Positions 16,001 to 32,940 of a DNA stretch of 64,000 nucleotides are shown here, in pieces (the first letter of the stretch is position 1; the number at the start of each line of letters is the position of its first letter). Location of the stretch: IMG/VR virus record IMGVR_UViG_3300021256_000064, positions 64,001 to 128,000 of that record; one strand, written 5' to 3'. The translations under genes were made by a program, and so were the position numbers. The notes beneath the pieces were generated by a model that searched no databases, was not told the DNA's origin, and worked only from the letters and a program-made list of their open reading frames with translations. Source of the stretch: a virus.

Positions 16001-16059
16001 GTATGGAGTTTGTTGCGGTTTTGGGGATAATGTTATTTGTGTTATGGAGGAATATGTGA

Positions 16060-17265: not shown

Positions 17266-17337
17266 ACCATATAATAATATAGTTTGTCAATACTAATTTA
17301 AAAAAATAAAAAAAGATAAAGCATTTCCGCCTTATCT

Positions 17338-18124: not shown

Positions 18125-18205
18125 TTTTTTATTTCCTCTCTTTTTTTGATAATATAATTATATAAGATTAATAATAATTTGTCAAGAAAAAAATTAATTT
18201 TCTTC

Positions 18206-18544: not shown

Positions 18545-18777
18545 GTGTTTTTTTCTAATTTTTTAAATTTAGGAAGCATTTTTTCATGCCACCAACTAAG
18601 CAAATCATTTCTCCAATCAGGTTGACAACTAGAAATAAAATCAATCACACCTTGGCAACCGTCTATAAGAGTTTTTATACTTGCGGTTGAATCAACCTTT
18701 TTAAAGATACATGCAGTTTCATATTTTGTTAAAATCCAATTCTGAATACCATCCATTGTAATAGTTTCTGTTTTCAT
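18541..18777 (-). CDS. hypothetical protein (78 aa)
   Basis: ORF track. Confidence 0.45.
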   Translation of the reverse strand: MKTETITMDGIQNWILTKYETACIFKKVDSTASIKTLIDGCQGVIDFISSCQPDWRNDLLSWWHEKMLPKFKKLEKNT

Positions 18778-19031
18778 TGTTTAATTCCTTTCTTTATCTT
18801 ATGTATAAATTATAATAAATTTTAGGAAAAAAGTCAACATGGCATTTTATACAAAAGTGCGGCGAAAAATTTGTTGAATATTACATCTTGACAAATGGCG
18901 GGGCCCGGCGCTTGTCACCGGGCCGAACATTATATCATACCCGCATGAGGTTGTCAATAGGTAATTTTTAACAAAAAAATAGCCAGATTTTCGTCATTTT
19001 AACGAAAATCTGGCTGAAATTGTCAGATTAT

Positions 19032-19424
19032 TTACTTTTTTGGCGGTCTTTTCTTGACTAAATCCAGTTTATAGTGATTTTCACCGACAGAAAACTCAAT
19101 AATTTTTGATTTATTGGTGATTTCCGCATCAAAACCCTCATTTTTCAGACAATTTGCAAGGATTTCGATAATTTTCTCTTTTTCTACATCGGGTTTCCGC
19201 TCACGCTTGACAGACTTTCTAGGTTTGTCTGATTTAGCTTCACGATTTACCTTATTAGCTTTAGCTTTTGCGGTAAGGGCTTCCACTTCCTCATTTTCCA
19301 TATACCCCTCATCCTCAAGGTACATCTGAATGGCTTCTTCTTTTGACAGGTCAAGGAGTTTCATGCTTTTTTCAATTTCAGCATCGGGGATGTTGATAAC
19401 TTTACCATTAAAATCGTATCTCAT
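19032..19424 (-). CDS. basic, Lys-rich protein (130 aa), possibly nucleic-acid binding
   Basis: ORF track. Confidence 0.5.
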   Translation of the reverse strand: MRYDFNGKVINIPDAEIEKSMKLLDLSKEEAIQMYLEDEGYMENEEVEALTAKAKANKVNREAKSDKPRKSVKRERKPDVEKEKIIEILANCLKNEGFDAEITNKSKIIEFSVGENHYKLDLVKKRPPKK

Positions 19425-19535
19425 TTGTCTACCTCATTTCTTTCTTTTGATGATTTAATTATACCGCATCCCCATACTTTTGTCAAGCGTTTTTTAAAAA
19501 ATGGGGGAGATTTTTTTCTCCCCCAAAATTGGCAT

Positions 19536-19886
19536 TTACGCCATAGAGTAATAAGGGGTTTTCTTTACGTAAACCTTTACAAGCTTACCCTCTTTTACAA
19601 GGGCGGACAGCATGTGTGTCACACGCTGGTTTGTAAAGTTTGCAATAGAGGGGACACCGCCCTGAAGCTCGCGGATTGTCTTAGGCTGGTCTACCTCAAT
19701 CAGGTAGGCGACAATATCAGCCTTGCAACTGTCATTCTCAAGCTGAGTTGCGGTAGGCTTACGAGAAGCAGAACGCTTCTTGTCCAGAAGCTTAATCTCA
19801 TTATCAATGAAAGCCACCATATCAGCATTGTCAACAACTACTTCACGGATTGCTACGAACATCTCTCTCTTTGTCATACTAGACAC
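19536..19886 (-). CDS. 117-aa winged-helix-like paralog A
   Basis: about 55-60% identical to 21850..22206 and 24247..24603 (MSSMTKREMF...ITHLLSALVK..GK). Confidence 0.6.
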   Translation of the reverse strand: MSSMTKREMFVAIREVVVDNADMVAFIDNEIKLLDKKRSASRKPTATQLENDSCKADIVAYLIEVDQPKTIRELQGGVPSIANFTNQRVTHMLSALVKEGKLVKVYVKKTPYYSMA

Positions 19887-20071
19887 CTCTTTCTTTTGAA
19901 AAATTGTTATTTGTTGTTTTCTATGTTATTATTATAACAAAGGTTTTTTGTTTTGTCAAGAACTTTTTTATTTTTTTTGAACTTGTCAATCGAACGACCT
20001 AGGACTTGTTCTACCTTATCAAAAAATTTTTTAGTGGTTGACTTCTTTGACTTTCCTTACCTTATGTATTT

Positions 20072-20100
20072 ATTATAACATAGGTTTTTTTATTTGTCAA
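20072..20100 (-). promoter_or_regulatory. archetypal minus-strand early promoter (one of more than 35 copies)
   Basis: RC TTGACA-AATAAAAAAACCTATGT-TATAAT. Confidence 0.6.
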
Positions 20101-20246
20101 GAACTTTTTTTATTTTTTTCTTGACCGCCAAGGCTTTTTCCCTTACCTTGTATAGTAATTATATCAAAAAATTTTTAAAAAGTCAACAATGGAATAATGC
20201 ACTAATTTTGGGATTTTTGCGGATGAAATTTTGTTCAAATTGTCTA

Positions 20247-20378
20247 TTGACAAAAAGTGCTGAGGTGTGGTATAATGGAATTTCAGGCCTAGCCGGAGGC
20301 GTACGGCCCGCCGACTTTAGCGCACTGAAGTGCAAAAGTGTCAAGAGAAAAAATAAAATCCGCATAAGCGGATTTTAT
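20247..20378 (+). ncRNA. plus-strand unit 1: consensus promoter, GC-rich hairpin RNA, shared terminator
   Basis: TTGACA 20247-52, TGgTATAAT 20271-76, GC segment GGCCTAGCCGGAGGCGTACGGCCCGCCG, terminator AAAATCCGCATAAGCGGATTTT. Confidence 0.5.
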
Positions 20379-20385
20379 AAACTGG

Positions 20386-20563
20386 TTTACATAAAGATAA
20401 AATACACGATACAGATAAACGCCAGACGGAAGCAAGAAGTTTGTACAGCCTTACTAAAGAACGGCTCCCACTCGTCATTGTACCACTTAATGTGGCAATC
20501 CGCGATGTGACCAATGAACATAACAATTACAAAAATAATAAACATTGTCATTCTAGTTTCCAT
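20386..20563 (-). CDS. small membrane protein (about 58 aa)
   Basis: GGAGG RBS; hydrophobic. Confidence 0.4.
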
Positions 20564-20566
20564 TTT

Positions 20567-20794
20567 TTAATCCTCCATTACTTCAAAAATATCAAAATTG
20601 GCTACTTTCTCAAATTCTACTTCAACAGAAACTAAATCCAAAATTTCTTCAACTAAATTAGCTTCTCCTTTAGTAAGATTCAAAAATCTAGGTTCTGAAC
20701 AAGGCAAATACAATACATACAATTCTTTTTTCATTTTTTTAATCCTTTCTTCTTTTGATGATATTATTATATCAAAAGGGGACTGTTTTGTCAA
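20567..20794 (-). CDS. acidic small protein (75 aa)
   Basis: ORF track. Confidence 0.45.
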   Translation of the reverse strand: MTKQSPFDIIISSKEERIKKMKKELYVLYLPCSEPRFLNLTKGEANLVEEILDLVSVEVEFEKVANFDIFEVMED

Positions 20795-20812
20795 TCCCCT
20801 TTTTTAATTTTT

Positions 20813-21520
20813 TTACGCCACGCACATTTTAAAATCAGTCTGAGGGATACGCCAAGGCATAGCCAGAATAATTTTATCCATGTGCTTGTGACAAGCGAAA
20901 CATTTAGCAAAAATTTTAGTTTCAATCAGTGCATCCTCAAGGGCGGTGTGCGCTTCCTCAAAAGAAAAATCCCTATTGATGTAGCGGTGGGCAATTTCAG
21001 CGGATGTTTTCACATTCCCGGCATCACTAACCCATGATTCACGGATGGCAAGCTTAAAGAATGTTTTCTGCTTAAGAATTGTCTGACAGCTCATACCCCA
21101 TGAACACCAGATGACAGTCTTTTCATTGAAAAAAGTCTGCTTTTCGTCAAATTTGCTCAGATAGTTAAGGGTTGAATTTAAAGCCCTTGTATCAAAACCA
21201 GCGTTGTAGGCTACTACAGCCTTTACGTTGTATTCTCTCATAAGAGAAAAGATTTCTTTGCGGATTTCCCAAAAAGATTTTACAATCCACTTGCCTGTTT
21301 TAATACCCTCTTTATATGCGGGAATTTTTTCAGCATAGTAGGCGGTTCTCATCTTCTTCCATTCGCCATAAAAGATTTCTCTTACAACGTAGGAACGTGA
21401 TTCATATATATTGCCTTTCTTGTCATGAATGGTGAAACCAATGTCATATACGAGAGGATTACCAAGGTTACCGCAAGTTTCAGTGTCAAGTGTAAGGTAG
21501 TAGTTTTTACGTCTGTCCAT
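20813..21520 (-). CDS. DnaQ-like DEDDh 3'-5' exonuclease
   Basis: LDTETCG (Exo I), NAGFD (Exo II), HTALEDA (Exo III). Confidence 0.75.
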   Translation of the reverse strand: MDRRKNYYLTLDTETCGNLGNPLVYDIGFTIHDKKGNIYESRSYVVREIFYGEWKKMRTAYYAEKIPAYKEGIKTGKWIVKSFWEIRKEIFSLMREYNVKAVVAYNAGFDTRALNSTLNYLSKFDEKQTFFNEKTVIWCSWGMSCQTILKQKTFFKLAIRESWVSDAGNVKTSAEIAHRYINRDFSFEEAHTALEDALIETKIFAKCFACHKHMDKIILAMPWRIPQTDFKMCVA

Positions 21521-21732
21521 TGTTGTTTTCCTTTCCTTTATCTTATGTACTTATTATACATGATTACTTTTAGTTTGTCAAGAGTTTTTTTTTATTTTTT
21601 TTGATTGTTTTTGTGCTTTCCTCTTGACAATTATTATTATACATGAGGGGCGGTAGAAAGTCAATTAAAAGTTATAAAAAAGTTGCACAAATTACAGGAA
21701 AAAAATTTGTGCAACTTTTTTTCAAAAAATGC

Positions 21733-21832
21733 TTGACAAAAATACGCGGGGTGTGGTATAATGGATTTTGCGCGCCAACCCGGGCGTTGGCGCGCTGACA
21801 AAAAAAGACGCCCACTCAGTGGACGCCTTTTG
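21733..21832 (+). ncRNA. plus-strand unit 2: operator IR GTTGCACAAAT...ATTTGTGCAAC, promoter, 10-bp GC hairpin GCGCGCCAAC-CCGGGC-GTTGGCGCGC, terminator
   Basis: TTGACA 21733-38, TATAAT 21757-62; terminator GACGCCCACTCAGTGGACGCCTTTT. Confidence 0.55.
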
Positions 21833-21849
21833 TGTGAGTATTAGGAGCA

Positions 21850-22206
21850 TCACTCCGCCTTGAGAGCGAAGTGAGCAACTTTCTTGACGGTCGTACGCTC
21901 GACCTTGCCATCCTTAACCAGTGCGGACAGAAGATGTGTAATTCTCTGGTTGGTGAGGTCAGCGATAGATTCGCACACCTCACAGAGTTCCCTAATTGTG
22001 ACAGGCTTGTCAACAGTTGCGAGTGCGGAGAGAATATCAGCCTTGAAAGCCTCGTTCTCTACCTGTGTCTTAGTCGGCTTGCGGGTAGCACCGCTCTTAC
22101 GATTAAGAAGGTCGATTTCCTTGTCAATAAAAGCTACCATTTCAGCGTTATCAGCAACAACCTTACGAATTTCTGCGAACATTTCTTTCTTTGTCATACG
22201 AAGCAC
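21850..22206 (-). CDS. 117-aa winged-helix-like paralog B
   Basis: ORF track; paralog of 19536 and 24247. Confidence 0.6.
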   Translation of the reverse strand: MLRMTKKEMFAEIRKVVADNAEMVAFIDKEIDLLNRKSGATRKPTKTQVENEAFKADILSALATVDKPVTIRELCEVCESIADLTNQRITHLLSALVKDGKVERTTVKKVAHFALKAE

Positions 22207-22660
22207 CTCTTTCTTTTGTGTTTTTGTTTTTCTTATGTATTTATTATATTATATTTTTTTTATTTTGTCAATAGTTTTTTTAAGATTTTGAAAAGTTAAA
22301 GTTTCGCTTCCCAGAGCGAGTTGGACTTCAGCCCTGTATCCCACTCCACTTTGTACGATTTAGTCGACTTTACGTACTCGCCTTTATGGCTCATTTTGTG
22401 GGGCTTGCCCTTTCCTCATCTTGTATAATTATTATATCATATATTTAATTGTTTGTCAAGAAGAATTTTCAAAACTTTTTTTTGTTGGGGGAGTGGAGAA
22501 TGGAGCGTGCGCACGTAACTCTTTCTAACCTACTCTCAAGAACTATGTTTCTGTCATCTCCTGACATTGTGTATTATATCAAATACCCATAAGAATTACA
22601 ATAGTCAAAATACACAAAATTATGGGAAAATGTTTGTGCATTTTGCTGAGAAAGTTTTAC

Positions 22661-22755
22661 TTGACAAAAAATGCGGCGGTATGATATACTGGAATTTCGG
22701 CGCGAACCGGAGGCTCGCGCCCCGCCCAAAAGCAGGATTTAATAACCCTGCTCTT
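22661..22755 (+). ncRNA. plus-strand unit 3 (promoter TTGACA...TATACT, hairpin GGCGCGA-ACCGGAGGC-TCGCGCC)
   Basis: seen directly; terminator hairpin overlaps stop of 22739..23002. Confidence 0.45.
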
Positions 22756-23002
22756 CTGCTTCAAGATATTCCTCTTTTGAAATTTCTTCAACGTAAGCTT
22801 GAACATGCATTTCATATATTTCAATTTCATCCCAATTATCCATATCTTCGACAAACCGCTCATCAGGATAAGCAAAAGAGTATTCATCACAACAAATCTC
22901 GTCTGCTTCAGCCCAGGCTTCACTTTCAGATTCTGCTTGAATGTAAAAATGTTCATCACAACCACAATAGCCATTTGTGCAAGTTATTTTGTAATATTTC
23001 AT
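22739..23002 (-). CDS. highly acidic Cys-containing small protein (87 aa), DNA-mimic-like composition
   Basis: ORF track. Confidence 0.45.
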   Translation of the reverse strand: MKYYKITCTNGYCGCDEHFYIQAESESEAWAEADEICCDEYSFAYPDERFVEDMDNWDEIEIYEMHVQAYVEEISKEEYLEAEEQGY

Positions 23003-23143
23003 TTTAATACCTCACTTCCAACTAATGTAAAGTTTATAAAAACAAAACTCATGGTGATAATCACAATTTTCATTGTAATTATAACCCCAATAGGGGTCGT
23101 TCCAACGGTTCCAACCAATTTTAATTTTCATTTTTGTCTCCTT

Positions 23144-23371
23144 TCAATCTTCTTCTACAAGTTCCCCAAACAGCTCACATACTTCACGCCATTCACCATC
23201 ATTACTTGCAATAAATTCAAAGATTTCATCATCAGGTTCATCGGGGACGCCATCTCTAATCCAAATATCATAAACAAAGTCATCCCCCATATCAATGATG
23301 TAGTTATGCATACCTTTAAGAAGTTCAATTCTTCTTTCAATCTCACTCTGTTTCGTACTCTTAATTGTCAT
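23144..23371 (-). CDS. acidic small protein (75 aa)
   Basis: ORF track. Confidence 0.45.
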   Translation of the reverse strand: MTIKSTKQSEIERRIELLKGMHNYIIDMGDDFVYDIWIRDGVPDEPDDEIFEFIASNDGEWREVCELFGELVEED

Positions 23372-23608
23372 TTTTTTTATTTCCTTTCTTCTTTTGATGT
23401 TATTAGTATATCATAAGGAATTAGAGTTGTCAACCCCTTATTTTTTCATTTAGGCGGCTGTCGGGATGCGCTGCATCCTTTTTATCCGACATTTAATCAT
23501 CTTCGTCCGGTGACGCTCCGCAGATTTGCGGGTCTTCCGACTTGCATCCAGTGGAACCGCTTATGTTATTAGTATATCATAAGGGGTTGGAGTTGTCAAT
23601 CCCTTATT

Positions 23609-23800
23609 TTATCTTTCTCTAAAGAAATAATCAGTGAGTTCACTTTCATCTTTTTCGCTATAAGGACACATATAAGTTTCACGAGCTTCAGGTGGAAAAT
23701 ATTGAGGGTCATTGTGGTCTGCCCTAAGATAACAATATTTTTCAGGTGTCATTTCTACAACTTTTTCTACTCGCATTATATAAGAGATTTTAACTTTCAT
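23609..23800 (-). CDS. hypothetical protein (63 aa)
   Basis: ORF track. Confidence 0.4.
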   Translation of the reverse strand: MKVKISYIMRVEKVVEMTPEKYCYLRADHNDPQYFPPEARETYMCPYSEKDESELTDYFFRER

Positions 23801-24018
23801 TTGGTGTGTTCCTTTCTTTATCTTATGTATAAATTATAATAAATTTTAGGAAAAATGTCAAGTTGTAATTTTGCACAAAATACAAATCAAAAATTTGTAT
23901 AGTATCACATATTGACAAAACGCATCCCGCGGCGGTCCGTTGCGGGATGCCAAAAGGGGACTGCCTTCTACGACAGCCCCCACACCAAAAGAAAGGAAAA
24001 CAAATATTAGATTCTGAG

Positions 24019-24092
24019 TGAGGGTGAGGGGACTTGAACCCCCGACACCTAGATTAAAAGTCTAGTGCTCTAGCCAACTGAGCTACACCCTC
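24019..24092 (-). tRNA. tRNA-Lys(UUU) embedded in early region
   Basis: acceptor GAGGGTG/CACCCTC, D-arm GCTC-AGTTGGCTAGA-GCAC, anticodon stem CTAGA/TCTAG, loop CTTTTAA, T-loop TTCAAGT. Confidence 0.7.
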
Positions 24093-24246
24093 AAAATGGG
24101 CGGGCTTATATTGCAAGGCGCTCCGCCAGCCTTAGGACTATTCTACTTAGTTCGTTCTTTTAGGCAACTCGGCTTGAATTATCCCATATATAGAAAGCCT
24201 TTTCCTTTAATGCGGTTTTTAAGGATGACCGCAAACCCTTATGGAG

Positions 24247-24603
24247 TTAAGCGTAGGAGAAGTAAGCAACCTTCTTCACCTGTGTTCTGACTACTTTGCC
24301 ATCCTTAATGAGGGCTGTCAGAAGGTGTGTGATTCTCTGGTTCGTCAGCTCTGCAATAGAGGGGCAAACCGCACACAGTTCCTTGATTGTTACAGGCTTG
24401 TCAACCTCAATAAGAGAAGCAATAATGTCAGCCTTGAAGCCATCATTCTCAACCTGTGTCTTTGTGGGCTTGCGAGAAGCGGATTTCTTCTTATCCAGAA
24501 GCTTAATTTCGTTCTGGATGAAAGCTACCATGTCCTCATTCTCAGCTACTGCGGAAACCTTAAGCATTTCATTGTACATTTCTCTCTTCGTCATACTAGA
24601 CAC
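24247..24603 (-). CDS. 117-aa winged-helix-like paralog C
   Basis: ORF track. Confidence 0.6.
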   Translation of the reverse strand: MSSMTKREMYNEMLKVSAVAENEDMVAFIQNEIKLLDKKKSASRKPTKTQVENDGFKADIIASLIEVDKPVTIKELCAVCPSIAELTNQRITHLLTALIKDGKVVRTQVKKVAYFSYA

Positions 24604-24639
24604 CTCTTTCTTTTTTTATGTTTTGTTTTTTCTTTATCT

Positions 24640-25200
24640 TATGTATTTATTATAACTTATTTTTTTTATTTTGTCAAGAGTTTTTTTTATTTTTTTTATT
24701 TTGTTTTCGTGGGTTTGGCGCCTTATACCACGTGGCTGATAGCATTTTTGTTAGCCCCTTACATCCACCCTAACATGGGGCTTAAATCCTAACTCCCATA
24801 CACTTAATGTCCTTTTCTTTGCTTAACTTCTGTATTTATTATATCATATCTTTTTTAATTTGTCAATCACTTTTTTTATTTTTTTTCGGCGGGTCTCTCA
24901 TAAGATTGGCTCCTCTCCTGACTTTACTTACTTCCAACTTGAAAGTATGTCATCAACTTTTTTCGTATTTTTTAAAGTTTTTTCGGCGGGTCTCTCATAA
25001 GAATCAATCCTTTCTTTATCTTATGTATTTATTATACCATAAGATTTTTTATTTGTCAATAGTTTTTTTAAGATTTTTTGAAGTGACTTTCTTTTGTTCA
25101 GATAACCGATAGGCGCGAGGCTCTACCAATCACCCTACTTAATGTTGTTGTCCTTCCTTTATCTTGATATAATTATATCAAAAGTTTTTTAAAAAGTCAA
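24640..25200 (-). promoter_or_regulatory. four consecutive promoter modules without ORFs, separated by GC-richer filler; repeated motif CGGCGGGTCTCTCATAAGA (x2 here, x1 at 30331)
   Basis: TATTATA...TTGTCAA modules at about 24650-24700, 24835-24880, 25025-25070, 25160-25200. Confidence 0.45.
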
Positions 25201-25260
25201 CAACGGAATAATGCACTATTTTTGGGATATTTTTTTGTGCAACTTTTTTTCAAATTTCAC

Positions 25261-25364
25261 TTGACAAAATGTGCGGGACATGGTATAATGGTGATTTCGC
25301 GCCAGGCCGATGGCTGGCGCGCCGCTAATCTTTAAATAAAAAAAGAGGGTGTAAAACCCTCTTA
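25261..25364 (+). ncRNA. plus-strand unit 4 (hairpin GCGCCAG-GCCGATGG-CTGGCGC)
   Basis: TTGACA 25261-66, TGgTATAAT 25284-89. Confidence 0.5.
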
Positions 25365-25583
25365 ATTGCCCATTCTCAATTCTCGATTCAGTTCTCTTAC
25401 AATCCTTTTAGTCTCATCAAGACCGATTGTATTAATGGCTTCATTAATTTTGGAGAGGATTTCACGCTTACACTCATAACGTCTCTGCTCCTGTGCTTTC
25501 TTTTCTCTAATTTCCATTAAATATTTGTGGAGTGCTTCGCGTTCGTCTGCTGTAATAAGGTATCCCATGAATTCGTTTTTCAT
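25362..25583 (-). CDS. hypothetical protein (73 aa)
   Basis: ORF track. Confidence 0.45.
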   Translation of the reverse strand: MKNEFMGYLITADEREALHKYLMEIREKKAQEQRRYECKREILSKINEAINTIGLDETKRIVRELNRELRMGN

Positions 25584-25638
25584 TTTTTTATTTCCTTTCT
25601 TTTTGATGATTTAATTATACTACAGAAATTATTATCTG

Positions 25639-26094
25639 TCAAGACTTTTGTGTAAAAATAATTTCTGTACCAGTATAGAAAGAGCGAGTACTTATGACTT
25701 CTTTTTTAAACCCTTCTAATTCAAATTTATCATTGAGATATTCCTCAATTTTCCAATGGAATTTACTCCAAAAAAGGCGGTCTTTTATTTTTAAATATTT
25801 TTTTGCAAAACCTATAGTCCATCCTATCCCGTTGTCATAAAAGAAAAAGGTTTTATCATCAGGGTTCCAATCACTTATCTGAGGGATGTAATAAGTAAGA
25901 ATCTCATCGGCTCTTTTTTCATCCCAAGTTGTGCGCTCATAATTCCAATTTTTGATTCGGTCGCTAATTTCAACACAAATCCAAATAGGGAAGAGGATGA
26001 TTCTCATTACTTTATAATCATTTTTGTGCCACCAATCGCGGATGAGGTGCTTTTTCTGTTTATCTTCAATAGCTTTTAAGATTTCTTTATTCAT
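25639..26094 (-). CDS. hypothetical protein (151 aa)
   Basis: ORF track. Confidence 0.55.
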   Translation of the reverse strand: MNKEILKAIEDKQKKHLIRDWWHKNDYKVMRIILFPIWICVEISDRIKNWNYERTTWDEKRADEILTYYIPQISDWNPDDKTFFFYDNGIGWTIGFAKKYLKIKDRLFWSKFHWKIEEYLNDKFELEGFKKEVISTRSFYTGTEIIFTQKS

Positions 26095-26159
26095 TTTTTT
26101 ATTTCCTTTCTTTCTTTTGATATATTAATTATACTATGAAAAACTAAAATTGTCAATAG

Positions 26160-26399
26160 TTATTTTATTTTTTCAATAATTAACCAACCGCAATTAATAC
26201 GAGCTGAATCATTAACCCTTTCAATAATAGATGTTCCCCATCCATTAGCTTTTGAAAAAATCATTTGCTTTGCGGAGTCATAAGAGTTAAAAGCATGTGG
26301 ATATTCACCAAATTTAGTTGAAAGGTCATTCTCATCACAAAAGGCTATTACATATTGAGGGGTATTTATTTCTTTTTCTTTAGAAAATATAAAAAACAT
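26160..26399 (-). CDS. hypothetical protein (79 aa)
   Basis: ORF track. Confidence 0.45.
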   Translation of the reverse strand: MFFIFSKEKEINTPQYVIAFCDENDLSTKFGEYPHAFNSYDSAKQMIFSKANGWGTSIIERVNDSARINCGWLIIEKIK

Positions 26400-26465
26400 T
26401 ATTTAGCTCCTTTTCTTTTGATACACTAATTATACAGCATTCTTTTTGGAATGTCAAGGGGATTT

Positions 26466-26909
26466 TTACATCCCCTTGAGAATTTCAATAATTGAGTGGA
26501 CATCGAAAGCCTTGCCTGTCCAGTTTTCTCTGTTCTTAGATTCATCATCGAACAGAATATCATTAGTTGTGTTAGCGAACGTCTGTTTAGGAGTGCCATA
26601 AGGAACAATGTTAATTTCATCGAATTTTACACTTGCCAGATGCTTATTAAGCCATGCCATTTTAGCTTCCGTTACTTTTGTATCGTATGATGCGGTGGAT
26701 GTTTTAGAAAGCCAAGAGATAACGCCGATTCTGTAGCCCTGTTTCTGAAGTCTATTCAAAATGCGGGCAAGTGAATTGAGGTTGACAAGTGGCTTTGCAT
26801 TAGCGTACGGGAACGGGTCATATGCTCTAAGAAGGGGAAGCCAATTGGGGACACTGTAAAGGTCTGCGATTGTACCGTCCATATCAAAGTAGATTGTAGT
26901 AGCTGTCAT
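26466..26909 (-). CDS. HAD-superfamily phosphatase (5'-nucleotidase-like)
   Basis: FDMDGTIAD DxDGT motif near N-terminus; GAGGAG RBS. Confidence 0.65.
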   Translation of the reverse strand: MTATTIYFDMDGTIADLYSVPNWLPLLRAYDPFPYANAKPLVNLNSLARILNRLQKQGYRIGVISWLSKTSTASYDTKVTEAKMAWLNKHLASVKFDEINIVPYGTPKQTFANTTNDILFDDESKNRENWTGKAFDVHSIIEILKGM

Positions 26910-27036
26910 GTTTCTGTTCTCCTCTCTCTTGATGATACTATTATAGCATGGGGGCATTGGGGTGTCAACTATTTTCAATAAAAAAGTTGCACAAATTATG
27001 GGATAAAAATTTGTATTTTTTTGTGCAAAATTTCGC

Positions 27037-27134
27037 TTGACAAAATGGTGCGGCATGTGGTATAATGGTTGAACGGGCTGCGCCCGGCCGCCCCCGCGGC
27101 GACGAAAAAATAGAGGTAATTACCCCTATTTTTT
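27037..27134 (+). ncRNA. plus-strand unit 5
   Basis: TTGACA 27037-42, TATAAT 27061-66, GC tract GGGCTGCGCCCGGCCGCCCCCGCGGCG, terminator AGAGGTAATTACCCCT+T6. Confidence 0.5.
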
Positions 27135-27405
27135 AAATATGATAAAGTTTTCCGTCAAGGACGTAGATGACACCCTCAGAACCATCATACTCGTCAATCT
27201 CCCAATCAGTAGCTTCATCCGGAATATCTACAATAGCAAGTCGGGCACAATGACCATTTGCGGCTTTCCCTAAAGTGTTAACTACCTCGATTAGACGAGG
27301 GTCTGTTCGAGAGATTAGAGGATAACGAGTTTTAAACCCAAGCATCTGCAAAGCTTCATCTGAAAGACCAAAACCGCCAAAACAAGTATTAATGCAAATC
27401 TTCAT
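27133..27405 (-). CDS. hypothetical protein (90 aa)
   Basis: ORF track. Confidence 0.5.
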   Translation of the reverse strand: MKICINTCFGGFGLSDEALQMLGFKTRYPLISRTDPRLIEVVNTLGKAANGHCARLAIVDIPDEATDWEIDEYDGSEGVIYVLDGKLYHI

Positions 27406-27438
27406 TTTTTATTTCCTCTCTTTTCTTTATCTTATGTA

Positions 27439-27624
27439 TTAATTATAGCCTGCTTCTTTCATTTTGTCAAGCATTTTTTGAGAAGTTTTTAAATATTTAT
27501 ATTTTCTATTTTCTTCACACCAGGGGCAACCGCCATGATTTCTGCATCTTTTAGAAATTGCTTTTCCGCCAGAATAGGGGCGCCGATGTTCTTTTCCACT
27601 TGTGATTGATTTCATTAAAGACAT
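27439..27624 (-). CDS. small basic zinc-ribbon protein (61 aa)
   Basis: ORF track; CRNHGGCPWC. Confidence 0.45.
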   Translation of the reverse strand: MSLMKSITSGKEHRRPYSGGKAISKRCRNHGGCPWCEENRKYKYLKTSQKMLDKMKEAGYN

Positions 27625-28163
27625 TTTTATTTACCCCCTTTTTAATTTTCCTTAAGGTTTTTATAAAGTTCCGCCAGTTGCTCATACAGAACTCCAATTT
27701 CATAATCCAATTTAATTCTTTTTGCAAAACTCCGGCACTTATTATAAGCACGTCTTTTATCTTTAAGCTGTTTCTCTATCTCATCAATCTGAATTCTTGT
27801 CATTGTTTTAACTTCCTTTCTCTTGATGATATAATTATACTATAGGGGTTGAGATTTGTCAACCCCTATTTTAATTTTTTAATTCGGGAAGGCTTCCATC
27901 ATAGCCTTGTACTCATCAGGTGTCTTTGCCAGTCTATCAACAATACGCCACCAAAGATCCATTCGGTCAGAAATATTGGACTTATGACCAACCAGATATT
28001 CAAAATTTTCGATTGTTTTGTTGTAGATTGCGATTGCTTCTTCCATGTCTGTGTTCTCCTCTCTCTTGATGATACTAGTATAGCATAGCCTACATAAGAA
28101 GTCAAGTAAAATATTGCACAAATTTGGGAATTTTTTCAGCTAATTTTTTGTGCAAATTGCCAA

Positions 28164-28257
28164 TTGACAAAAGTTGGAAGGTATGCTATAATGGTTCGGC
28201 GGGCAGGCCCCGGCTGCCCGCGCGCCACTCAAAAAAGAGGGCTTAAGCCCCCTTTCT
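28164..28257 (+). ncRNA. plus-strand unit 6 (hairpin GCGGGCAG-GCCCCGG-CTGCCCGC)
   Basis: TTGACA 28164-69, TATAAT 28187-92, terminator AGAGGGCTTAAGCCCCCTTTCT. Confidence 0.5.
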
Positions 28258-28434
28258 GGCTCTCTCACGTCTCTTCTTTTCAGCTTTCAGTGCGTGCTCC
28301 CGCATCTGAAGCTTCACATTTTCTGGAGTTTCGTCTACAGGAAGCAGGTGAACCGCCTTAATACCCTCAGCCTTAGCAGTTGCAAAATTCTCAGTTACCT
28401 TACCGCCCTTTGTCTCGTATCTAACTGTTCTCAT
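28243..28434 (-). CDS. hypothetical basic protein (63 aa)
   Basis: ORF track. Confidence 0.45.
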   Translation of the reverse strand: MRTVRYETKGGKVTENFATAKAEGIKAVHLLPVDETPENVKLQMREHALKAEKKRRERARKGA

Positions 28435-28503
28435 TCTAATTTCTCCTTTTCTTTTGTTATCTTATATATAAATTATACTATTTTTCTTTTAAGTTGTCAA
28501 CAA

Positions 28504-28692
28504 TTATTTTTCATTTTCAAAAGGAACGTTTAAAGCTACAACCATAGCCAGTGTTACGATTTCATCAGAAACTGCTTTGTTTTCCGCCAGATTGCAAAAC
28601 CAAATTGTAGTTTCGTCCTCTAATCCTCTAAAAGTTGCGACCTTATTTTCCATTTCCATTCTAGACATAATTAATCCTCCATTTTGATCCAT
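28504..28692 (-). CDS. hypothetical protein (62 aa)
   Basis: ORF track. Confidence 0.4.
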   Translation of the reverse strand: MDQNGGLIMSRMEMENKVATFRGLEDETTIWFCNLAENKAVSDEIVTLAMVVALNVPFENEK

Positions 28693-28734
28693 ATATGAGG
28701 GGTTCGGTTCGTTTACCGAACCCCTAACCAGTTA

Positions 28735-28920
28735 TCAGATTCTAGCAAGAATCTTTGACATGATTTCATTGTGTGCGTTAAGAGCATCCATATACAGGCT
28801 ATCAGCTCTGCACCATGCTTCGAAGTTGTTTGCCCTTGTAGCTCTGACCAGTTCGGCATATGCACGATTAAGTTCTGTTCTAAGTTCCTGTTCCTTTGCT
28901 CTCATTTCTGTAAGTGTCAT
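28735..28920 (-). CDS. hypothetical protein (61 aa)
   Basis: ORF track; similar to 32146..32328 (MT..EMRAKE..L...AY.L..A). Confidence 0.45.
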   Translation of the reverse strand: MTLTEMRAKEQELRTELNRAYAELVRATRANNFEAWCRADSLYMDALNAHNEIMSKILARI

Positions 28921-29178
28921 TTTTGTTTTCCTCTCTTTCTTTATCTTATGTACTTATTATACATGATGTTTTTTATTTTGTCAAGGGGTTTTTTATTTTT
29001 TTTCAAGTTTCCAGATTGGATTTTTTGTTGTATCCCGTGTGCCGTCGGCATTGAAGAACCAAATTGCGCGATAATTATCCATTGAAATAATTACCATATT
29101 GCCAAACTCTTTTATTTGATAGCCACGGCTTCTATGAATACGAATGAATTTGTCTTTTGTCATTTTTTTGTTCTCCTT

Positions 29179-29361
29179 TCAAAAACCAATGTAGTGGTCA
29201 AACTGTCCGTCAATCCGACATTCAATGTACCAATCTTCTTCAGAACACATATCTTCTTCTAAAAGACAGCCAAAAGCGTGAGCATTTTCGTAAGAAGTAA
29301 ATGTATCTTCTTTAAAATGATGTCCCATACAATCAATCACCCACACCACATATTCAAACAT
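29179..29361 (-). CDS. acidic Cys/His small protein (60 aa)
   Basis: ORF track. Confidence 0.4.
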   Translation of the reverse strand: MFEYVVWVIDCMGHHFKEDTFTSYENAHAFGCLLEEDMCSEEDWYIECRIDGQFDHYIGF

Positions 29362-29449
29362 TTTTTTGTTCTCCTCTCTTGTTTCTGATATAATGATACT
29401 ACTTTTTTAGTCACTTGTCAAAGGATTTTTTTAATTTTTATGCGGTTTA

Positions 29450-29732
29450 GCATTTTGCACAAAAAGGCTTTAAAAAGTTTGTGCAATTTGCTATTTTTAT
29501 TTTTAGCTATTGACAAAAAATTTTTTGTGCAAACTGCACAATAACAGAGTGCTTCACTTGTGTAGTTTGCACAACTCCAGAAAAGTCAAGTAGAAATGTT
29601 GCACAAAAATGGGGCAGTTTTGGGCGTTCTTTTTGTGCAATTTGACGAGAAGCACATCTGCACCGATCTGTCAATGGGCAAATTGCACAAATTTGGGAAA
29701 AAATTGCGCTTAATCTTTGTGTAATTTGCCTA
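29450..29732. promoter_or_regulatory. dense array (8 or more) of TTGCACAAA / TTTGTGCAA operator half-sites upstream of unit 7 promoter
   Basis: seen directly. Confidence 0.6.
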
Positions 29733-29815
29733 TTGACAAAACCGCGAGGGTATGGTATAATGGTTGAACGGGCAAAGCCCGTGCGCCCACGGCGCGCCGA
29801 GCAAGAGCCGGAGCT
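29733..29815 (+). ncRNA. plus-strand unit 7 (hairpins ACGGGC-AAA-GCCCGT and GCGCC-CAC-GGCGC)
   Basis: TTGACA 29733-38, TGgTATAAT 29756-61. Confidence 0.45.
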
Positions 29816-30009
29816 TAGGAGAAGAATCTATTCCAAGCTTCCCACTCCTCAGTCCAGAGGTCCTCGATGTCTGTCCAATCGAGGTTCTCATCTCCGCTCA
29901 GCATAGCCGAACGAGCAAAGGCTGTAGCTTCCATAGCCTTGCGGTACTGCTCTACCTTGCGGTTTGTGAGGGTTGCTGTGATGCCGTCTGCGATAATGAT
30001 TGTTGTCAT
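29815..30009 (-). CDS. acidic small protein (64 aa)
   Basis: ORF track. Confidence 0.45.
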   Translation of the reverse strand: MTTIIIADGITATLTNRKVEQYRKAMEATAFARSAMLSGDENLDWTDIEDLWTEEWEAWNRFFS

Positions 30010-30094
30010 TTTTTTATCTCCTCTCTCTTGATGATTTTATTATATCAGATGGGATTGTTTTTGTCAACTACTTTTTTTTATTTTTTTTAGCGGA

Positions 30095-30180
30095 GCGAGT
30101 GGGAGTTGAACCCAAGAGAACTACTTGCTAGCATTTTCGTTCCCAGACGTCACCGTCTACCTACTTCCGTTCGGCTTACC
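30095..30180 (-). ncRNA. promoter-driven tRNA-like RNA (T-loop GGGTTCAACTCCC) occupying the slot where a module normally carries a CDS
   Basis: promoter 30185-30235 has ATCATCGGAAGG in place of RBS; transcript lacks ORF. Confidence 0.35.
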
Positions 30181-30418
30181 CTTCCGATGATTTTATTATA
30201 TCAAAGACTTTTTAGTTTGTCAACTACTTTTTTTATTTTTTGGTGAGGGATGGGAACTTGTCCGCTCACCGTGCCTGTATTCATCGCGCCCTAATGTCCC
30301 CAGGCTCTGGCGCATTTCTTTGGTTTGTTGGTTTTTACGGCGGGTCTCTCATTTCTGTGTTCCTCTCTTTTGATGATTTTATTATATCAGGTGGGGTTGA
30401 TTTTGTCAACCCCTTTTT

Positions 30419-30565
30419 TCAATTTTTTTCTTCTATTGTCATGTACTCTTCATAACCGAGGTTATCCCAAGCAGTATCTACATATTCGCAAGCCTCTTCA
30501 TAAGAATCGAATACTTCATCTACACTCCAGTTTCCACAGCAATCCATGAACCATACTTCGTACAT
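30419..30565 (-). CDS. acidic Cys-containing small protein (about 48 aa)
   Basis: internal ATG of ORF 30419..30622. Confidence 0.35.
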   Translation of the reverse strand: MYEVWFMDCCGNWSVDEVFDSYEEACEYVDTAWDNLGYEEYMTIEEKN

Positions 30566-30734
30566 TTTTGTTCTCCTCTCTCTTGATGATTCTATTATAT
30601 CAGATAGGTTGAAGTTTGTCAACCTTTTATTTTTATTTTTTAGAAGTTTTTGATATGAGTGGGAGATTTTCGACTTAGTTTAAAACTTACTCGCCTCGTC
30701 TGGGTGAACTTGCTTTAAAACACCCTTCGAAGTA

Positions 30735-30790
30735 AAGGAAGGAATCGAACCTTGTGTTGCTGTCAGCCTTTCTGACTGCCTTTACCTTAT
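30735..30790 (-). ncRNA. mini tRNA-like RNA at +1 of a promoter module: acceptor-like, D-arm-like and T-arm (AAGG-TTCGATT-CCTT) but no anticodon arm
   Basis: RC GGTAAAGGCAGTCAGAAAGGCTGACAGCAACACAAGGTTCGATTCCTTCCTTTACT. Confidence 0.3.
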
Positions 30791-31494
30791 GTTTTTATTA
30801 TACCAGAGGGGTTGAGGTTTGTCAACCCCTCTTTTTCATTTTTTTAATTTTCTTTGAGAAGCTCTTCAGCGATTTCCTCGGCTTCCGCCTCGGTGATTTC
30901 GTTGTATGCTACCATTCTGACCAGTTCTTCGAACATCATGTACTTCATTTTGCGTTCCTCGCTTTCTTTATCTTATGTACTTATTATATCAGATGTTTTG
31001 TAGTTTGTCAACTACTTTTTTTATTTTTTTGAAGCTTTCTACATTTCAGATGAACAACCGGCGCTTGGCTCGTCCGCCCACCCTATTCTGTTTTGTTGCT
31101 TCCTTTCTTTTGATGATTTAATTATATCATGGGGCTTGGCTTTTGTCAAGCCCCTTTTTTAATTTTTTTAAAAGATTTTTACGACTTTTCTGTCATCGTT
31201 ATCGTTATCTGTTGTGATAACCGCTGTTGTAGCATCTACATCTACAATACCATCCCAACCGCCATCCATAGCTGTCTGAACCGGAATGTTAAGTGCGTTA
31301 TTTGCTACTGCCCAGTTATAAAGATCCATGATTGTCATTTTTTTTACTTCCTTTCGTTTGTGTTTTTGTTTTCCTTTGATGATATAAGTATACCATCCTA
31401 GGTTTCTGTTGTCAATAGTTTTTTAAAAATCATATCAAAAATATTGCACAAAAATAGGAATTTATTTTTGTACATTTTGACGAATAAATTAGTC

Positions 31495-31606
31495 TTGACA
31501 AACTGCGTTGTAGTGTGGTATAATTTTCACGGCCTCCAGCCGTTCGTTTGTGGTTGCTAATCTTATTAGTTAATAAAAAGATAAGAGCGTTTCCGCTCTT
31601 ATCTTA
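31495..31606 (+). ncRNA. plus-strand unit 8 (hairpin ACGGC-CTCCA-GCCGT; terminator AGATAAGAGCG-TTTC-CGCTCTTATCT)
   Basis: TTGACA 31495-500, TGgTATAAT 31519-24. Confidence 0.5.
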
Positions 31607-31904
31607 CCTCGTTATATTTATTTCTTGTGTGTTCTTTTGCCAGTGCTAAAAGGTCTGTCGGGATTGTTTCATTTTCGTTGTAGTATCTTCTAATCTGTCC
31701 TGGTCTAGCGATTAATCTAGTTACCATTTTCTTTGTTCTTTCATTGTAGATTGTAATGATTGCTGTTGAGCTAATCACGTGGATTTCAGCACCGTTGCGA
31801 TGTCCTCTGTCTACTCTAACTTCCTTTACTGGTGTTCCTTCACCGATCTGCTGAATAAGTTCTTCTCTTGCTTTTCTATCTTTTGTGTAATGCTTGCTTG
31901 TCAT
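31599..31904 (-). CDS. hypothetical protein (101 aa)
   Basis: ORF track. Confidence 0.5.
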   Translation of the reverse strand: MTSKHYTKDRKAREELIQQIGEGTPVKEVRVDRGHRNGAEIHVISSTAIITIYNERTKKMVTRLIARPGQIRRYYNENETIPTDLLALAKEHTRNKYNEVR

Positions 31905-32044
31905 GTCTTTGTTCTCCTTTGCTTTTGTTTTCTTTTGATGATACTATTATAACGCTTACTTTATTAGTTGTCAATAGGTTTTCAACAAAAATATTGCACA
32001 ATTTTAGGTGATTTATTTTGTTACTTTTGACGAATAACTTAGTC

Positions 32045-32140
32045 TTGACAAACTGCATCGTTGTGTGGTATGCTGTTTCGGTGTCCGAACGACTGTTCAC
32101 GTTAGCAAATAAGTAAAAGCCTAACTTTCGTTAGGCTTTT
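32045..32140 (+). ncRNA. plus-strand unit 9 (promoter near-identical to unit 8, -10 TATGCT; terminator AAAAGCCTAAC-TTTCG-TTAGGCTTTT)
   Basis: seen directly. Confidence 0.45.
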
Positions 32141-32145
32141 ATTCT

Positions 32146-32439: not shown

Positions 32440-32940
32440 TATTGGTTAGTAGTGCCTACCTACTACCATGCTGTACTACATACATGTATTAACATATTAA
32501 TGTGTTAATGTATTAATGTTGTATTGTGTTAATGTGTTAATGTTGTATCACTTCACATCGTTACACTTCAACGTGGTGAAGTGATGCAGCTCAGCACTTC
32601 AACGTGGTGAAGCGTCACAGTGATACCACTTTAACGCGCTGAAGTGGCAATGCTTTAACGCGGTGAAGTGATAGCGCTTTAACGTACTAAAGTTTCATAC
32701 TTTAACGCGGTGAAGTGGCACCGTGGTGACGCGCGAAAAACAGCCATAAGTAAGACTTTAGCGAGGTGAAGTGTTAACGCGCTGACGCTTTAACGCGGTG
32801 AAGTGGTGACGCTGTGAAGCGCTGAAATCGCCCCTAAAATGGGACTTTAGCGCGGTGAAGTGTGACGCTTTAACGCGCTAAAATTTAACGCTTTAGCGTG
32901 GTGAAGTGCAAAAACGGCTCTCAACCAACCCGTTTCGAGC
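32440..32940. repeat. iteron array: about 11 degenerate copies of ACTTYAACGCGGTGAAGTG (partly palindromic ACTTCA-N6-TGAAGT) at irregular 20-45 bp spacing, preceded by GTTAATGT mini-repeats
   Basis: seen directly; noncoding 950-bp gap between gene blocks. Confidence 0.75.

Follow-up and report, generated by a model that had tools for sequence, protein, structure and literature searches.

The 64,000-nucleotide stretch of viral DNA considered here (positions 64,001 to 128,000 of IMG/VR record IMGVR_UViG_3300021256_000064, hereafter the window) is part of the genome of a large tailed phage, with genes for a sigma factor (4050-4901), a terminase (38423-40159) and a portal protein (40599-42182), and its early region carries the repeated element that is the subject of this report, a consensus sigma-A promoter that points back at the neighbouring gene and is followed at its start site by a hairpin made of G and C. 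A sheep-rumen metagenome scaffold of 124.6 kb (ENA ERZ28612970, SHIW14-1_SAMN02144230-S004 scaffold_240) matches the window at 100% identity; the study from which it comes reportedly yielded metatranscriptomes as well. The terminase shares 45% identity with its counterparts in the ~140-kb siphoviruses Enterococcus H1/EF1 and Geobacillus E3 and 44% with that of phAss-1, the SPbeta-type YonF being more distant. The source phage is TAG-recoded and about 125-140 kb in length. Its late genes occupy the plus strand from 35.9 kb to 64000 and are open only when TAG is read as sense, which doubles the total open reading frame (ORF) length and extends the longest ORF from 357 to 1218 codons. The early region, from 17 to 32.4 kb, consists of small minus-strand ORFs in the standard code, nearly every one of which has its own consensus sigma-A promoter. 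Overall GC content of the window is 33%, and the pattern TTGACA-N16-19-TATAAT is found 43 times in it against an expectation of 0.17.

Promoter-hairpin units of the early region

The preliminary description of this DNA drew attention to nine consensus promoters on the plus strand, each proposed to make a short structured RNA ending at the terminator of a convergent gene. The consensus is exact at seven of the sites (20247, 21733, 25261, 27037, 28164, 29733 and 31495), and at the other two the -10 box is one base off, reading TATACT at 22661 and TATGCT at 32045. The sequence GTGGTATAATGG, listed as conserved among them, is exact at three sites, carries one mismatch at two and two mismatches at another two. 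In its canonical form, found at seven of the nine sites, the unit consists of a consensus -35 hexamer, a TRTG motif, a consensus -10 box, GG, an AT leader of 7-8 nt and the GC-only hairpin, whereas the units at 31495 and 32045 are paralogous promoter variants that lack the GC clamp. All nine oppose minus-strand genes, as was originally stated, and no ORF with a ribosome-binding site starts inside any of them. Each stands back-to-back with a sense-strand promoter 62-84 nt away. The anatomy was read correctly at the outset; what was overlooked is a further 32 exact consensus promoters on the minus strand between 17.2 and 32.4 kb, which drive the early genes, an inverted repeat upstream of the units, face-to-face variants of the arrangement, and its wide distribution.

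Immediate entry of the transcript into a GC hairpin is a feature of seven units (20247 to 29733), in which GC-only hairpins begin 7-10 nt past the -10 box; the units at 31495 and 32045 have weak non-GC stems only. The stems of the seven are 5-10 bp long, with folding z-scores from -1.7 to -4.1. The concentration of GC-rich DNA at these positions is such that 11 of the window's 12 stretches with 80% GC or more fall within 17.2-31.1 kb, and nine of those eleven are directly downstream of a consensus promoter, with one more right after a bare -35 hexamer. Termination is less uniform than had been claimed. A bidirectional terminator with a usable plus-strand T-run follows the promoters at 20247, 27037, 31495 and 32045, and a weak one that at 21733, but the T-run serves the minus strand only at 22661, 25261 and 28164, and there is none at 29733.

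Two further sites had been set aside as degenerate copies. At the first (18898-18960) the plus-side -10 box is indeed missing, but the site is a face-to-face pair, of which the minus strand carries the working promoter; this promoter is co-oriented with the genes and preceded by a terminator (19015-18981), and the plus side contributes a -35 hexamer alone (18878-18883). At the second (23921-23960) a -35 hexamer and a hairpin stand without a -10 box, and the hairpin follows the minus-strand terminator of a tRNA-Lys unit. Both arrangements are conserved in a related 139.8-kb IMG/VR contig, L001, in the second case with a different hairpin sequence, so that the bare -35 hexamers (18878-18883 and 23912-23917) are not the product of random decay. 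The tRNA in question, tRNA-Lys(UUU) at 24018-24092 on the minus strand, is the only one inside the early region and is remote from the main tRNA cluster; a terminator of its own at 23956-23981 is followed by the GC hairpin, and we speculate that an early tRNA-Lys could counter host anticodon nucleases.

A supposed minus-strand analogue of the units at 17120-17265 proves to be something else. The minus strand at 17100-17290 is a conserved small-RNA candidate of a different family, with a promoter of the second type defined below, a GC hairpin, a C-rich single-stranded linker (CUUCCCCCAC), CCCAUAUGCGA and then U7. A second CCAUAUG..U6 module is present downstream in the same candidate, and homologues occur in at least eight other contigs.

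Table 1. Features of the window; z is the folding z-score of the hairpin
Feature	Position	Strand	Details
Suppressor tRNA(CTA)	1180-1253	-	in tRNA cluster at 0.3-5.1 kb
Type I unit 1	20247-20378	+	promoter 20247-20276 (TTGACA-N18-TATAAT, TGTGG, then GG)
Unit 1 hairpins	~20286-20314, 20314-20340	+	first GC-rich and irregular, second small; z -4.1
Unit 1 terminator	20353-20378		of convergent gene; T-runs on both strands
Type I unit 2	21683-21832	+	inverted repeat TTGCACAAA 21683-21691 / TTTGTGCAA 21706-21714; promoter 21733-21762
Unit 2 hairpin	21770-21795	+	10-bp GC stem; z -3.0; outer pair lost in strain variants
Unit 2 terminator	21808-21832		7 T on minus strand, TTTTGTGTG on plus strand
Type I unit 3	22661-22751	+	promoter 22661-22690 (-10 TATACT); hairpin 22699-22721
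Unit 3 terminator	22732-22751	-	no usable plus-strand T-run
Type I unit 4	25211-25363	+	repeat right half 25234-25242; promoter 25261-25289; hairpin 25298-25321, z -3.9
Unit 4 terminator	25343-25363	-	minus strand only
Type I unit 5	26987-27134	+	inverted repeat 26987-26995 / 27020-27028; promoter 27037-27066
Unit 5 hairpins	27074-27086, 27087-27100	+	two 5-bp GC stems; z -3.2
Unit 5 terminator	27105-27134		bidirectional
Type I unit 6	28114-28255	+	promoter 28164-28192; hairpin 28199-28221; terminator 28234-28255 (weak plus-strand T-run)
Unit 6 inverted repeat	28114-28122 / 28147-28155		8 nt from each of two divergent -35 hexamers
Type I unit 7	29683-29795	+	repeat 29683-29691 / 29716-29724; promoter 29733-29761; no terminator ahead of convergent gene's stop codon at 29815
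Unit 7 hairpins	29768-29782, 29783-29795	+	z -1.7
Variant unit 8	31444-31605	+	TTGCACAAA 31444-31452; promoter 31495-31524; terminator 31578-31605
Unit 8 stem	31529-31543	+	5 bp only, no GC clamp
Variant unit 9	31994-32143	+	paralogue of unit 8; promoter 32045-32074 (-10 TATGCT); no GC hairpin
Unit 9 terminator	32112-32143		bidirectional
Face-to-face element	18878-18957		minus-strand type II promoter 18957-18929; GC hairpin 18902-18924
-35-only element	23912-23981		TTGACA 23912-23917 abuts 13-bp GC hairpin 23922-23950; z -4.5; tRNA-Lys terminator 23956-23981
Type II promoters	18957-18929, 17290-17261	-	
Further inverted repeats	29455-29640		cluster of TTGCACAAA / TTTGTGCAA in ~300 bp of non-coding DNA upstream of unit 7
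Winged-helix protein genes	19536-19886, 21850-22206, 24247-24603	-	three early paralogues, 113-116 aa, own promoters
Cassettes missing from strain L148	~17215-18165, 20063-20985, 22990-23949; fourth gap (~240 nt) 15239-15480		each bridged by ~100 nt unaligned
Promoter with RBS-like leader, no real ORF	24690-25171, 30090-30380, 30640-30796, 31025-31120, 19965-20157	-	RBS, ribosome-binding site
Hairpins containing a minus-strand -35 hexamer	27842-27869, 30393-30413, 30606-30625, 30805-30832, 31131-31154, 23579-23607	+	read as plus-strand terminators

Conservation of the module and turnover of its hairpins

A generic promoter-pattern scan of viral contigs gathered 164 non-redundant promoter and GC-hairpin units, including those of the window and of L001, from dozens of uncultured contigs that range from 29% to 48% GC. 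The exonuclease-like protein of L001 is 88% identical to that of the window, and its early region, which is shuffled relative to ours, holds seven type I and two type II units. The uncultured phAss-1 of GenBank, placed in a 'code 15 clade', also carries units, among them a full face-to-face pair (L122, 40714(+)/40804(-)); the paper describing phAss-1 does not mention promoters or hairpins. Megablast and sensitive blastn searches of 50,697 phage records found the module in no cultured phage and only in phAss-1. When reference bacterial genomes were scanned with the pattern, it appeared only on metagenome-bin contigs, some of them 140-176 kb long and most from Clostridia, Oscillospiraceae and Acutalibacteraceae bins, and these are probably phage contigs. 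The bins make Oscillospirales a candidate for the host.

Two types can be distinguished. Type I units, of which the window has the examples numbered 1 to 7 in Table 1, follow the consensus ttgcacAAATTTcGGGA...TTTGTgCAA...TTGACAAAa-spacer-gtGTGGTATAAT-GGAAATTT (n=102), with GG after gtGTGGTATAAT and with GGGA located 37-38 nt upstream of the -35 hexamer in 79 of the 102. Type II promoters lie on the gene strand, have a terminator and a T-rich TTTGTGCA upstream, and are followed by the GC hairpin 3-4 nt after the -10 box. The orientation of type I units is close to invariant: among 87 testable units from other contigs, the 500 nt of the unit strand that lie downstream are pyrimidine-rich in 84 and those that lie upstream in 82, which places the flanking genes on the opposite strand, whereas type II units are co-oriented with the genes. 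It was purine skew that settled this point, a longest-open-frame test of same-strand ORFs being uninformative. The convergent stop codon and the hairpin are a median of 40 nt apart. The 86 proteins that the convergent genes encode form 51 clusters, so the element is generic and independent of any particular gene.

What lies beyond the hairpin varies. In 54 of the 102 type I units an A-run and hairpin downstream constitute the terminator of the sense gene, 12 face a complete convergent promoter and 7 face a bare -35 hexamer. A T-run on the unit's own strand accompanies only 16 of the 54 convergent terminators, and a discrete RNA of 60-100 nt, once supposed to be the product of every unit, would on this count not be the rule. 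Because an own-strand terminator is present in only about a third of cases, many transcripts should run antisense into the upstream gene. Full face-to-face pairs comprise 12 of the 102 type I and 15 of the 41 type II units, and the only example in the window is the half-decayed one at 18878-18957.

The hairpins differ in sequence from copy to copy, as first noted, but they have a size in common and conform loosely to a consensus. Perfect stems of 8 bp or more are found in 63% of units and in 1% of shuffled sequences, and in 96 of the 157 units with a stem of at least 5 bp the perfect stem begins 7-8 nt past the -10 box, where transcription is expected to start. Most stems are 8-9 bp long and consist of G and C alone, and the length of the whole hairpin peaks at 27 nt, being exactly 27 nt in 34 of 102 and 23-29 nt in 82 of 102. 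Conserved in the 27-nt class are CGC (positions 6-8), GCG (positions 20-22) and CG-NN-CG at the centre. When 30 different 27-nt hairpins, chosen for having stems, were aligned without gaps, eight of the nine pairs proved to change on both sides, with a covariation score of 0.61 against 0.18 when shuffled (reached in 0 of 500 trials) and no more than 0.12 with the partners slid. G.U pairs hardly occur and A-T pairs are rare; the 15 mismatches in stems include 3 G.U and 6 A.C. Maximal stability is what selection acts on in these hairpins. The sequence 3' of the hairpin is C-rich and then A-rich on the unit strand (AAATTTCC on the other), and a test for intrinsic terminators found no U-tract after the GC hairpin on either strand.

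Comparison of orthologous units from different contigs shows how quickly the hairpin changes relative to its surroundings, the spacer being up to 100%, the flanks 83-95% and the hairpin 63-70% identical, with pairing still perfect. The same holds at close range. In strains that are 97.5-99.6% identical to the window, changes affect 14 of 135 hairpin positions and 1.5% of positions overall (binomial p ~2e-8), so that hairpins change about 7 times faster than background with pairing kept. The strain-level changes cluster in three events. For instance, the hairpin at 23922-23950 has seven substitutions in strain L149, including two fully compensatory pairs, and in strain L153, 98.5% identical to the window, the unit 22661 hairpin has gone from GGCGCGA..TCGCGCC to GGCGCCAG..CTGGCGCC, again compensated. 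Since structure is kept in spite of rapid change, hairpin turnover is both fast and structure-preserving, and its source could be exchange among units or template switching within the palindrome; diversifying selection may also be at work. This compensated hypervariability between strains is the most unusual feature of the module.

Units also coincide with breaks in the order of early cassettes. The early region is mosaic relative to L001, and homologous blocks end at units: the block matching L001 6225-6700 ends at the -35 hexamer of unit 22661, and at unit 6 homology ends at the start site and hairpin. Unit 22661 itself resembles the L001 unit at 8167, whereas its adjacent terminator and gene match the neighbourhood of the L001 unit at 6700, showing that hairpin and promoter have travelled together, apart from the adjacent terminator and gene. 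At unit 1, the L001 orthologue has conserved flanks and a replaced hairpin. The 99%-identical strain L148, compared with window positions 15239-25078, is without three cassettes of ~0.9-1 kb (Table 1), one of which has an end at the hairpin 23922-23950, where the alignment block stops at 23949. These gaps are instances of cassette gain and loss inside a single phage population.

The repeat upstream of the plus-strand promoters, TTGCACAAA-N14/24-TTTGTGCAA, is equally characteristic of the early region, with 16 of the 17 exact copies of the TTGCACAAA 9-mer lying at 21.6-31.5 kb. Its halves are spaced 23 or 33 bp apart and the promoter-proximal half is 8 or 18 nt from the -35 hexamer, spacings that in both cases differ by one helical turn. 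Each of two divergent promoters has part of the repeat as its upstream element (TTTGTGCAA-N8/18-TTGACA), and interpretation of the repeat as a simple operator was rejected on the grounds that it partly consists of such paired upstream elements. A strict divergent sense promoter, however, is present within 170 nt upstream of only 38 of 101 units (against a 12% background), for which reason a protein-binding role remains likely, and the repeat is a candidate binding site whose helical phasing would mark the unit promoters as a separately controllable class. Non-coding DNA at 29420-29730 contains at least nine copies of TTGCACAAA or TTTGTGCAA and several -35-like hexamers without a -10 box, and may be a regulatory hub for a repeat-binding protein.

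Candidates for such a protein are the three paralogous winged-helix proteins of the early region. The family counts more than 1000 metagenomic relatives and lacks a Pfam domain; a structural model (predicted local distance difference test, pLDDT, 90) has the ArsR, MarR and MecI repressors as its closest solved folds, at weak E values of ~0.006-0.06. Members are present in 40 of 55 loci with units and in 16 of 62 loci without them, and we infer from this association that they could bind the inverted repeat.

Several other observations were made in and around the early region. Many consensus minus-strand promoters are followed by a leader resembling a ribosome-binding site and no real ORF, and among these stretches the mini-ORF ATGAGAGACCCGCCG (MRDPP...) is found three times. 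Tandem promoters at 20186, 20100 and 19959 are spaced by only 50-110 nt of non-coding sequence. A fragment like the T-arm and acceptor 3' end of a tRNA or transfer-messenger RNA (tmRNA), GGGTTCAACTCCCACTCGCTCCGC, occupies 30095-30130 (minus strand), where a non-coding transcript ends; ARAGORN makes no call there, and Rfam gives partial tmRNA matches only. The -35 hexamers of several minus-strand gene promoters sit within hairpins that, with their T-runs, read as plus-strand terminators, and these could stop antisense transcripts at the head of a cassette. Finally, an iteron-like array at 32484-32910, which separates the early region from the minus-strand genes ahead of the late operon, comprises about eight copies of CTTTAACGCGGTGAAGTG with a period of ~24 nt together with TTAATGTG repeats, and could be an origin, a packaging site or a genome end.

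A possible role at cassette boundaries

The reading that we favour, though tentatively, is that the units are regulated cis-antisense elements that act by convergent transcription at the boundaries of early cassettes. Along the genes the order is gene A, its terminator, the GC hairpin, and a sigma-A promoter of maximal predicted strength that faces back towards gene A and has all the features associated with occupancy in Gram-positive bacteria, namely the -35 hexamer, a 17-18 bp spacer, the TRTG/-16 element, the -10 box and the GG discriminator. Host RNA polymerase would start at the unit and yield an untranslated RNA, whose first ~27 nt would fold into a GC-only hairpin that clamps the 5' end. 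Such a clamp would resist 5' exonucleases and, once emerged, would block backtracking, so that the elongating complex would be a firm opponent of sense polymerases that read through. The RNA would then enter, and mostly pass, the terminator and 3' end of gene A. Opposition in cis would take two forms, head-on collision or occlusion of polymerases and pairing between the RNA and the 3' end of gene A mRNA, and the outcome would be less read-through into the next cassette and a gene A whose expression is tuned or timed.

Regulation could be superimposed on this arrangement if an early DNA-binding protein of the phage, for which the winged-helix paralogues are candidates, switched the antisense promoter by way of the inverted repeat. 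A repressor of the antisense promoters would relieve interference and give delayed expression of the flanked cassettes, and activation late in infection would act oppositely. Delayed or transient expression could thereby be obtained in a region where all promoters are sigma-A consensus. Of the roles suggested in the preliminary description, insulation by convergent transcription fits the evidence best, although it is not provable from sequence.

Several findings weigh against cis-antisense control at boundaries. Units are present at only 9 to 11 of the ~45 gene boundaries of the window, and the genes that they flank have no obvious distinction. About a third of units do meet a bidirectional terminator, in which case overlap with the sense mRNA is limited to the terminator hairpin. 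The fixed 27-nt size, the loose consensus and the exclusive use of GC pairs should be unneeded in a simple 5' stabiliser. In face-to-face pairs the start of the sense promoter falls within the stem, and the hairpin therefore cannot act alike for both RNAs. Furthermore, the near absence of G.U pairs means that the folded species is not assignable to the plus-strand RNA as opposed to the minus-strand RNA or DNA, and the loop motif CG-NN-CG, being symmetric, gives no strand call.

One alternative dispenses with the RNA product altogether. An open or early-elongation complex of excessive stability would sit at the antisense promoter as a roadblock or insulator; the consensus elements and a GC start that is hard to melt would hold it there, and the hairpin would lock it against backtracking. 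From this position it would stop leaking sense polymerases, reinforce the terminator of gene A and shield the next sense promoter. Every promoter element known to raise occupancy is present, including the GG discriminator, the GC block starts exactly at the start site, the units come immediately after sense terminators, and the enrichment of strict divergent sense promoters described above (38 of 101 units, and all nine in the window) supplies something to shield. Yet a hard-to-melt start requires GC and not symmetry, and it is symmetry that is conserved and compensated. Moreover, 62% of units have no strict sense promoter nearby to protect, and the sense promoters, themselves consensus, are little threatened by occlusion. 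We consider a pure roadblock unlikely.

The coincidence of units with mosaic ends bears on a second alternative, that they are recombination cassettes comparable to the promoter-early stem-loop (PeSL) cassettes of T4-type phages. The promoter block would provide short homology and the GC palindrome a fragile or template-switch site, driving the shuffling of early cassettes, and units would persist by spreading, with little regulatory role. Block ends relative to L001 at units 22661 (-35 hexamer) and 28164 (start site), the joint movement of hairpin and promoter apart from the adjacent terminator and gene, the end of an L148-missing cassette at hairpin 23922-23950, and the PeSL precedent itself (PMC2839356, PMC4122927) are all as expected of such cassettes. 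Strict antisense orientation and the fixed position and size of the hairpin are left unexplained, however, as is the retention of the full promoter consensus and perfect pairing across contigs of 29%-50% GC, and as a complete account this one is improbable.

The speed of hairpin turnover would have a different meaning if the hairpins were a fast-diversifying library of about ten distinct, stable 27-nt RNAs per genome with a function of their own instead of a passive 5' stabiliser, a notion to which we give little credence. Compensated change between strains 99% identical is what would be expected of specificity or identity determinants, examples of which would be kissing-loop antisense RNAs that set incompatibility or superinfection exclusion among relatives infecting the same cell, or decoys in an arms race against a host RNA-sensing defence. 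More generally, the units could encode trans-acting structured small RNAs, either nuclease-resistant decoys or sponges that occupy an RNA-binding protein, an RNase or a defence sensor of the host, or identity or incompatibility determinants under diversifying selection. Strong promoters, very stable 5' hairpins of defined size and loose consensus, and hairpins that evolve ~7 times faster than background with pairing retained would suit such RNAs. Most units nevertheless lack an own-strand terminator, which leaves a discrete RNA unassured; a trans-acting RNA would have no need of strict antisense placement, and no non-trivial match of at least 10 nt to any hairpin was found elsewhere in the 64-kb window. 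A covariance-model search of 16.5-33.5 kb against Rfam (E up to 5) gave no match to the units, tRNA-Lys alone reaching the gathering score. For the idea of decoys of Chi sites or restriction sites, shared k-mers carry no meaning, given an alphabet of G and C only. Sequence turnover also speaks against mimicry of one fixed host molecule, which weakens the decoy, sponge and RNA-mimic roles proposed earlier, and the differences between units and strains argue against mimicry of one CRISPR repeat (an RNA anti-CRISPR). The probability that we attach to trans-acting RNAs, in either form, is small.

Two further alternatives are very improbable. Transcript-primed origins are known from ColE1, T4 (oriF and oriG) and yeast mitochondria (ori), and a promoter followed by a GC element is reminiscent of them; an annealed GC-rich transcript would prime DNA synthesis at the units, as start sites of replication or recombination, and the repeats, which cluster at 29.4-29.7 kb with the iteron-like array nearby at 32.5-32.9 kb, would bind an initiator. 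This replication role, which had been among the original suggestions, finds no support: nine or more copies are packed into 12 kb, the palindrome confers no excess of G over C on the RNA, a transcript that folds on itself competes with R-loop formation, there is no AT-rich unwinding element after the hairpin, and the iteron array is a separate sequence family. Equally slim is the chance that the palindrome is an operator spanning +1 to +28, at which a dimeric phage repressor blocks one or both flanking promoters, since the position-specific conservation of the 27-nt class, the location of the palindrome between two -10 boxes in face-to-face pairs and the abundance of winged-helix proteins are set against variable positions that covary perfectly between arms and strains, as intramolecular pairing does and uncontacted operator bases do not, and against the two short hairpins in place of one palindrome at units 27037 and 29733.

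A number of narrower ideas were tried and rejected. Pairing between promoter spacer and hairpin loop, suggested by two units, fails in that cognate and non-cognate duplexes have the same energy (-12.14 vs -12.14 kcal/mol). Mimicry of a tRNA minihelix, as a substrate of RNase P or the CCA enzyme (leader, stem, NCCA), calls for NCCA after the stem, but no more than 24 of 84 units have CCA at offset 0 or 1, and this CCA is partly the reverse complement of the GG following a facing -10 box. Type I toxin-antitoxin systems are no general explanation, as the convergent genes are mostly not toxin-like; in the window only that at 20387-20563 encodes a hydrophobic product (58 aa), the other eight being soluble, acidic or DNA-binding-like. 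As for hairpin promoters of the N4 type, stems of 5-6 bp with 3-nt loops are confined to units 27037 and 29733, the rest having 8-10 bp and larger loops, and consensus sigma-A elements are present in all units.

If regulated antisense promoters at cassette boundaries do operate in this way, they would be a compact and portable means of ordering and insulating early genes in large uncultured phages of gut and rumen Clostridia, whose early programme is run from dozens of identical-looking host promoters. The hypervariable yet perfectly paired hairpin is in addition a clean case of structure-preserving evolution. The module also serves as a sequence signature of the early region in 'code 15' phAss-like siphoviruses and their relatives, and, with a very strong predicted promoter joined to a 5' clamp, it is a candidate synthetic-biology part for Gram-positive hosts.

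Relation to described elements

The module is real, conserved and apparently undescribed, and is akin both to promoter-stem-loop cassettes and to control by cis-antisense RNAs and convergent promoters. Of the elements described so far, those that come nearest are the PeSL cassettes found in T4-type phages (Arbiol et al. 2010, PMC2839356; Comeau et al. 2014, PMC4122927). Both combine a repeated, near-consensus early promoter of the sigma-70 type with a stem-loop, both are concentrated in a plastic early region rich in small ORFs and occur at insertion, deletion or replacement junctions between close relatives, and degraded copies of both keep only the -35 hexamer and the stem-loop. However, the PeSL stem-loop is a terminator upstream of the promoter, whereas here it is located at +1 downstream, is GC-only and has no U-tract. 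PeSL promoters are co-oriented with genes, and a Shine-Dalgarno sequence and start codon follow; the promoters described here are antisense (84 of 87) with no gene following, and only the rarer type II has an upstream terminator. Phage lineage and host phylum differ as well.

The hairpins also recall intrinsic terminators and the repetitive extragenic palindromes and bacterial interspersed mosaic elements (REP/BIME), all of these being GC-rich palindromes that come after gene 3' ends. Unlike an intrinsic terminator, the GC hairpin has no U-tract on either strand, and unlike REP sequences the copies do not share one sequence, and each is at a fixed distance from a consensus promoter.

In function the likeness lies elsewhere. 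RatA and SR4, antitoxins of Bacillus prophages, are cis-antisense RNAs that overlap their targets at the 3' end. Similarly, the lambda OOP RNA acts against the 3' end of cII (PMC5869508). The units would share with these a short untranslated RNA, a strong promoter of its own, convergent orientation and overlap with the 3' end or terminator of the upstream gene, and regulation through an RNA duplex is proposed here by analogy; by the geometry of the predicted transcript, with the stop codon a median of 40 nt away, a convergent promoter and 3'-end overlap are both in place. RNAs of the OOP type are single loci of conserved sequence with a defined terminator, whereas the present module is generic and multi-copy, at 9-11 per genome, has a 5' GC clamp and an upstream inverted repeat, often lacks an own-strand terminator, and is directed at genes that are mostly not toxin-like.

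The pR and pL promoters of coliphage 186 form a face-to-face switch that works with transcriptional interference. More broadly, interference between convergent promoters can be relieved by repressors (PMC5001618, PMC5423467). The units resemble such switches in having close convergent promoters, at which polymerases could by analogy collide or occlude one another, and full pairs ~95 bp apart exist in relatives and in phAss-1. Known face-to-face cases, however, are single developmental switches between coding transcripts, whereas here one partner makes no protein, a GC palindrome fills the gap between the -10 boxes, and the arrangement is repeated many times. By analogy, it is nevertheless the OOP-type antisense RNAs and the face-to-face interfering promoters that the units would most resemble in function.

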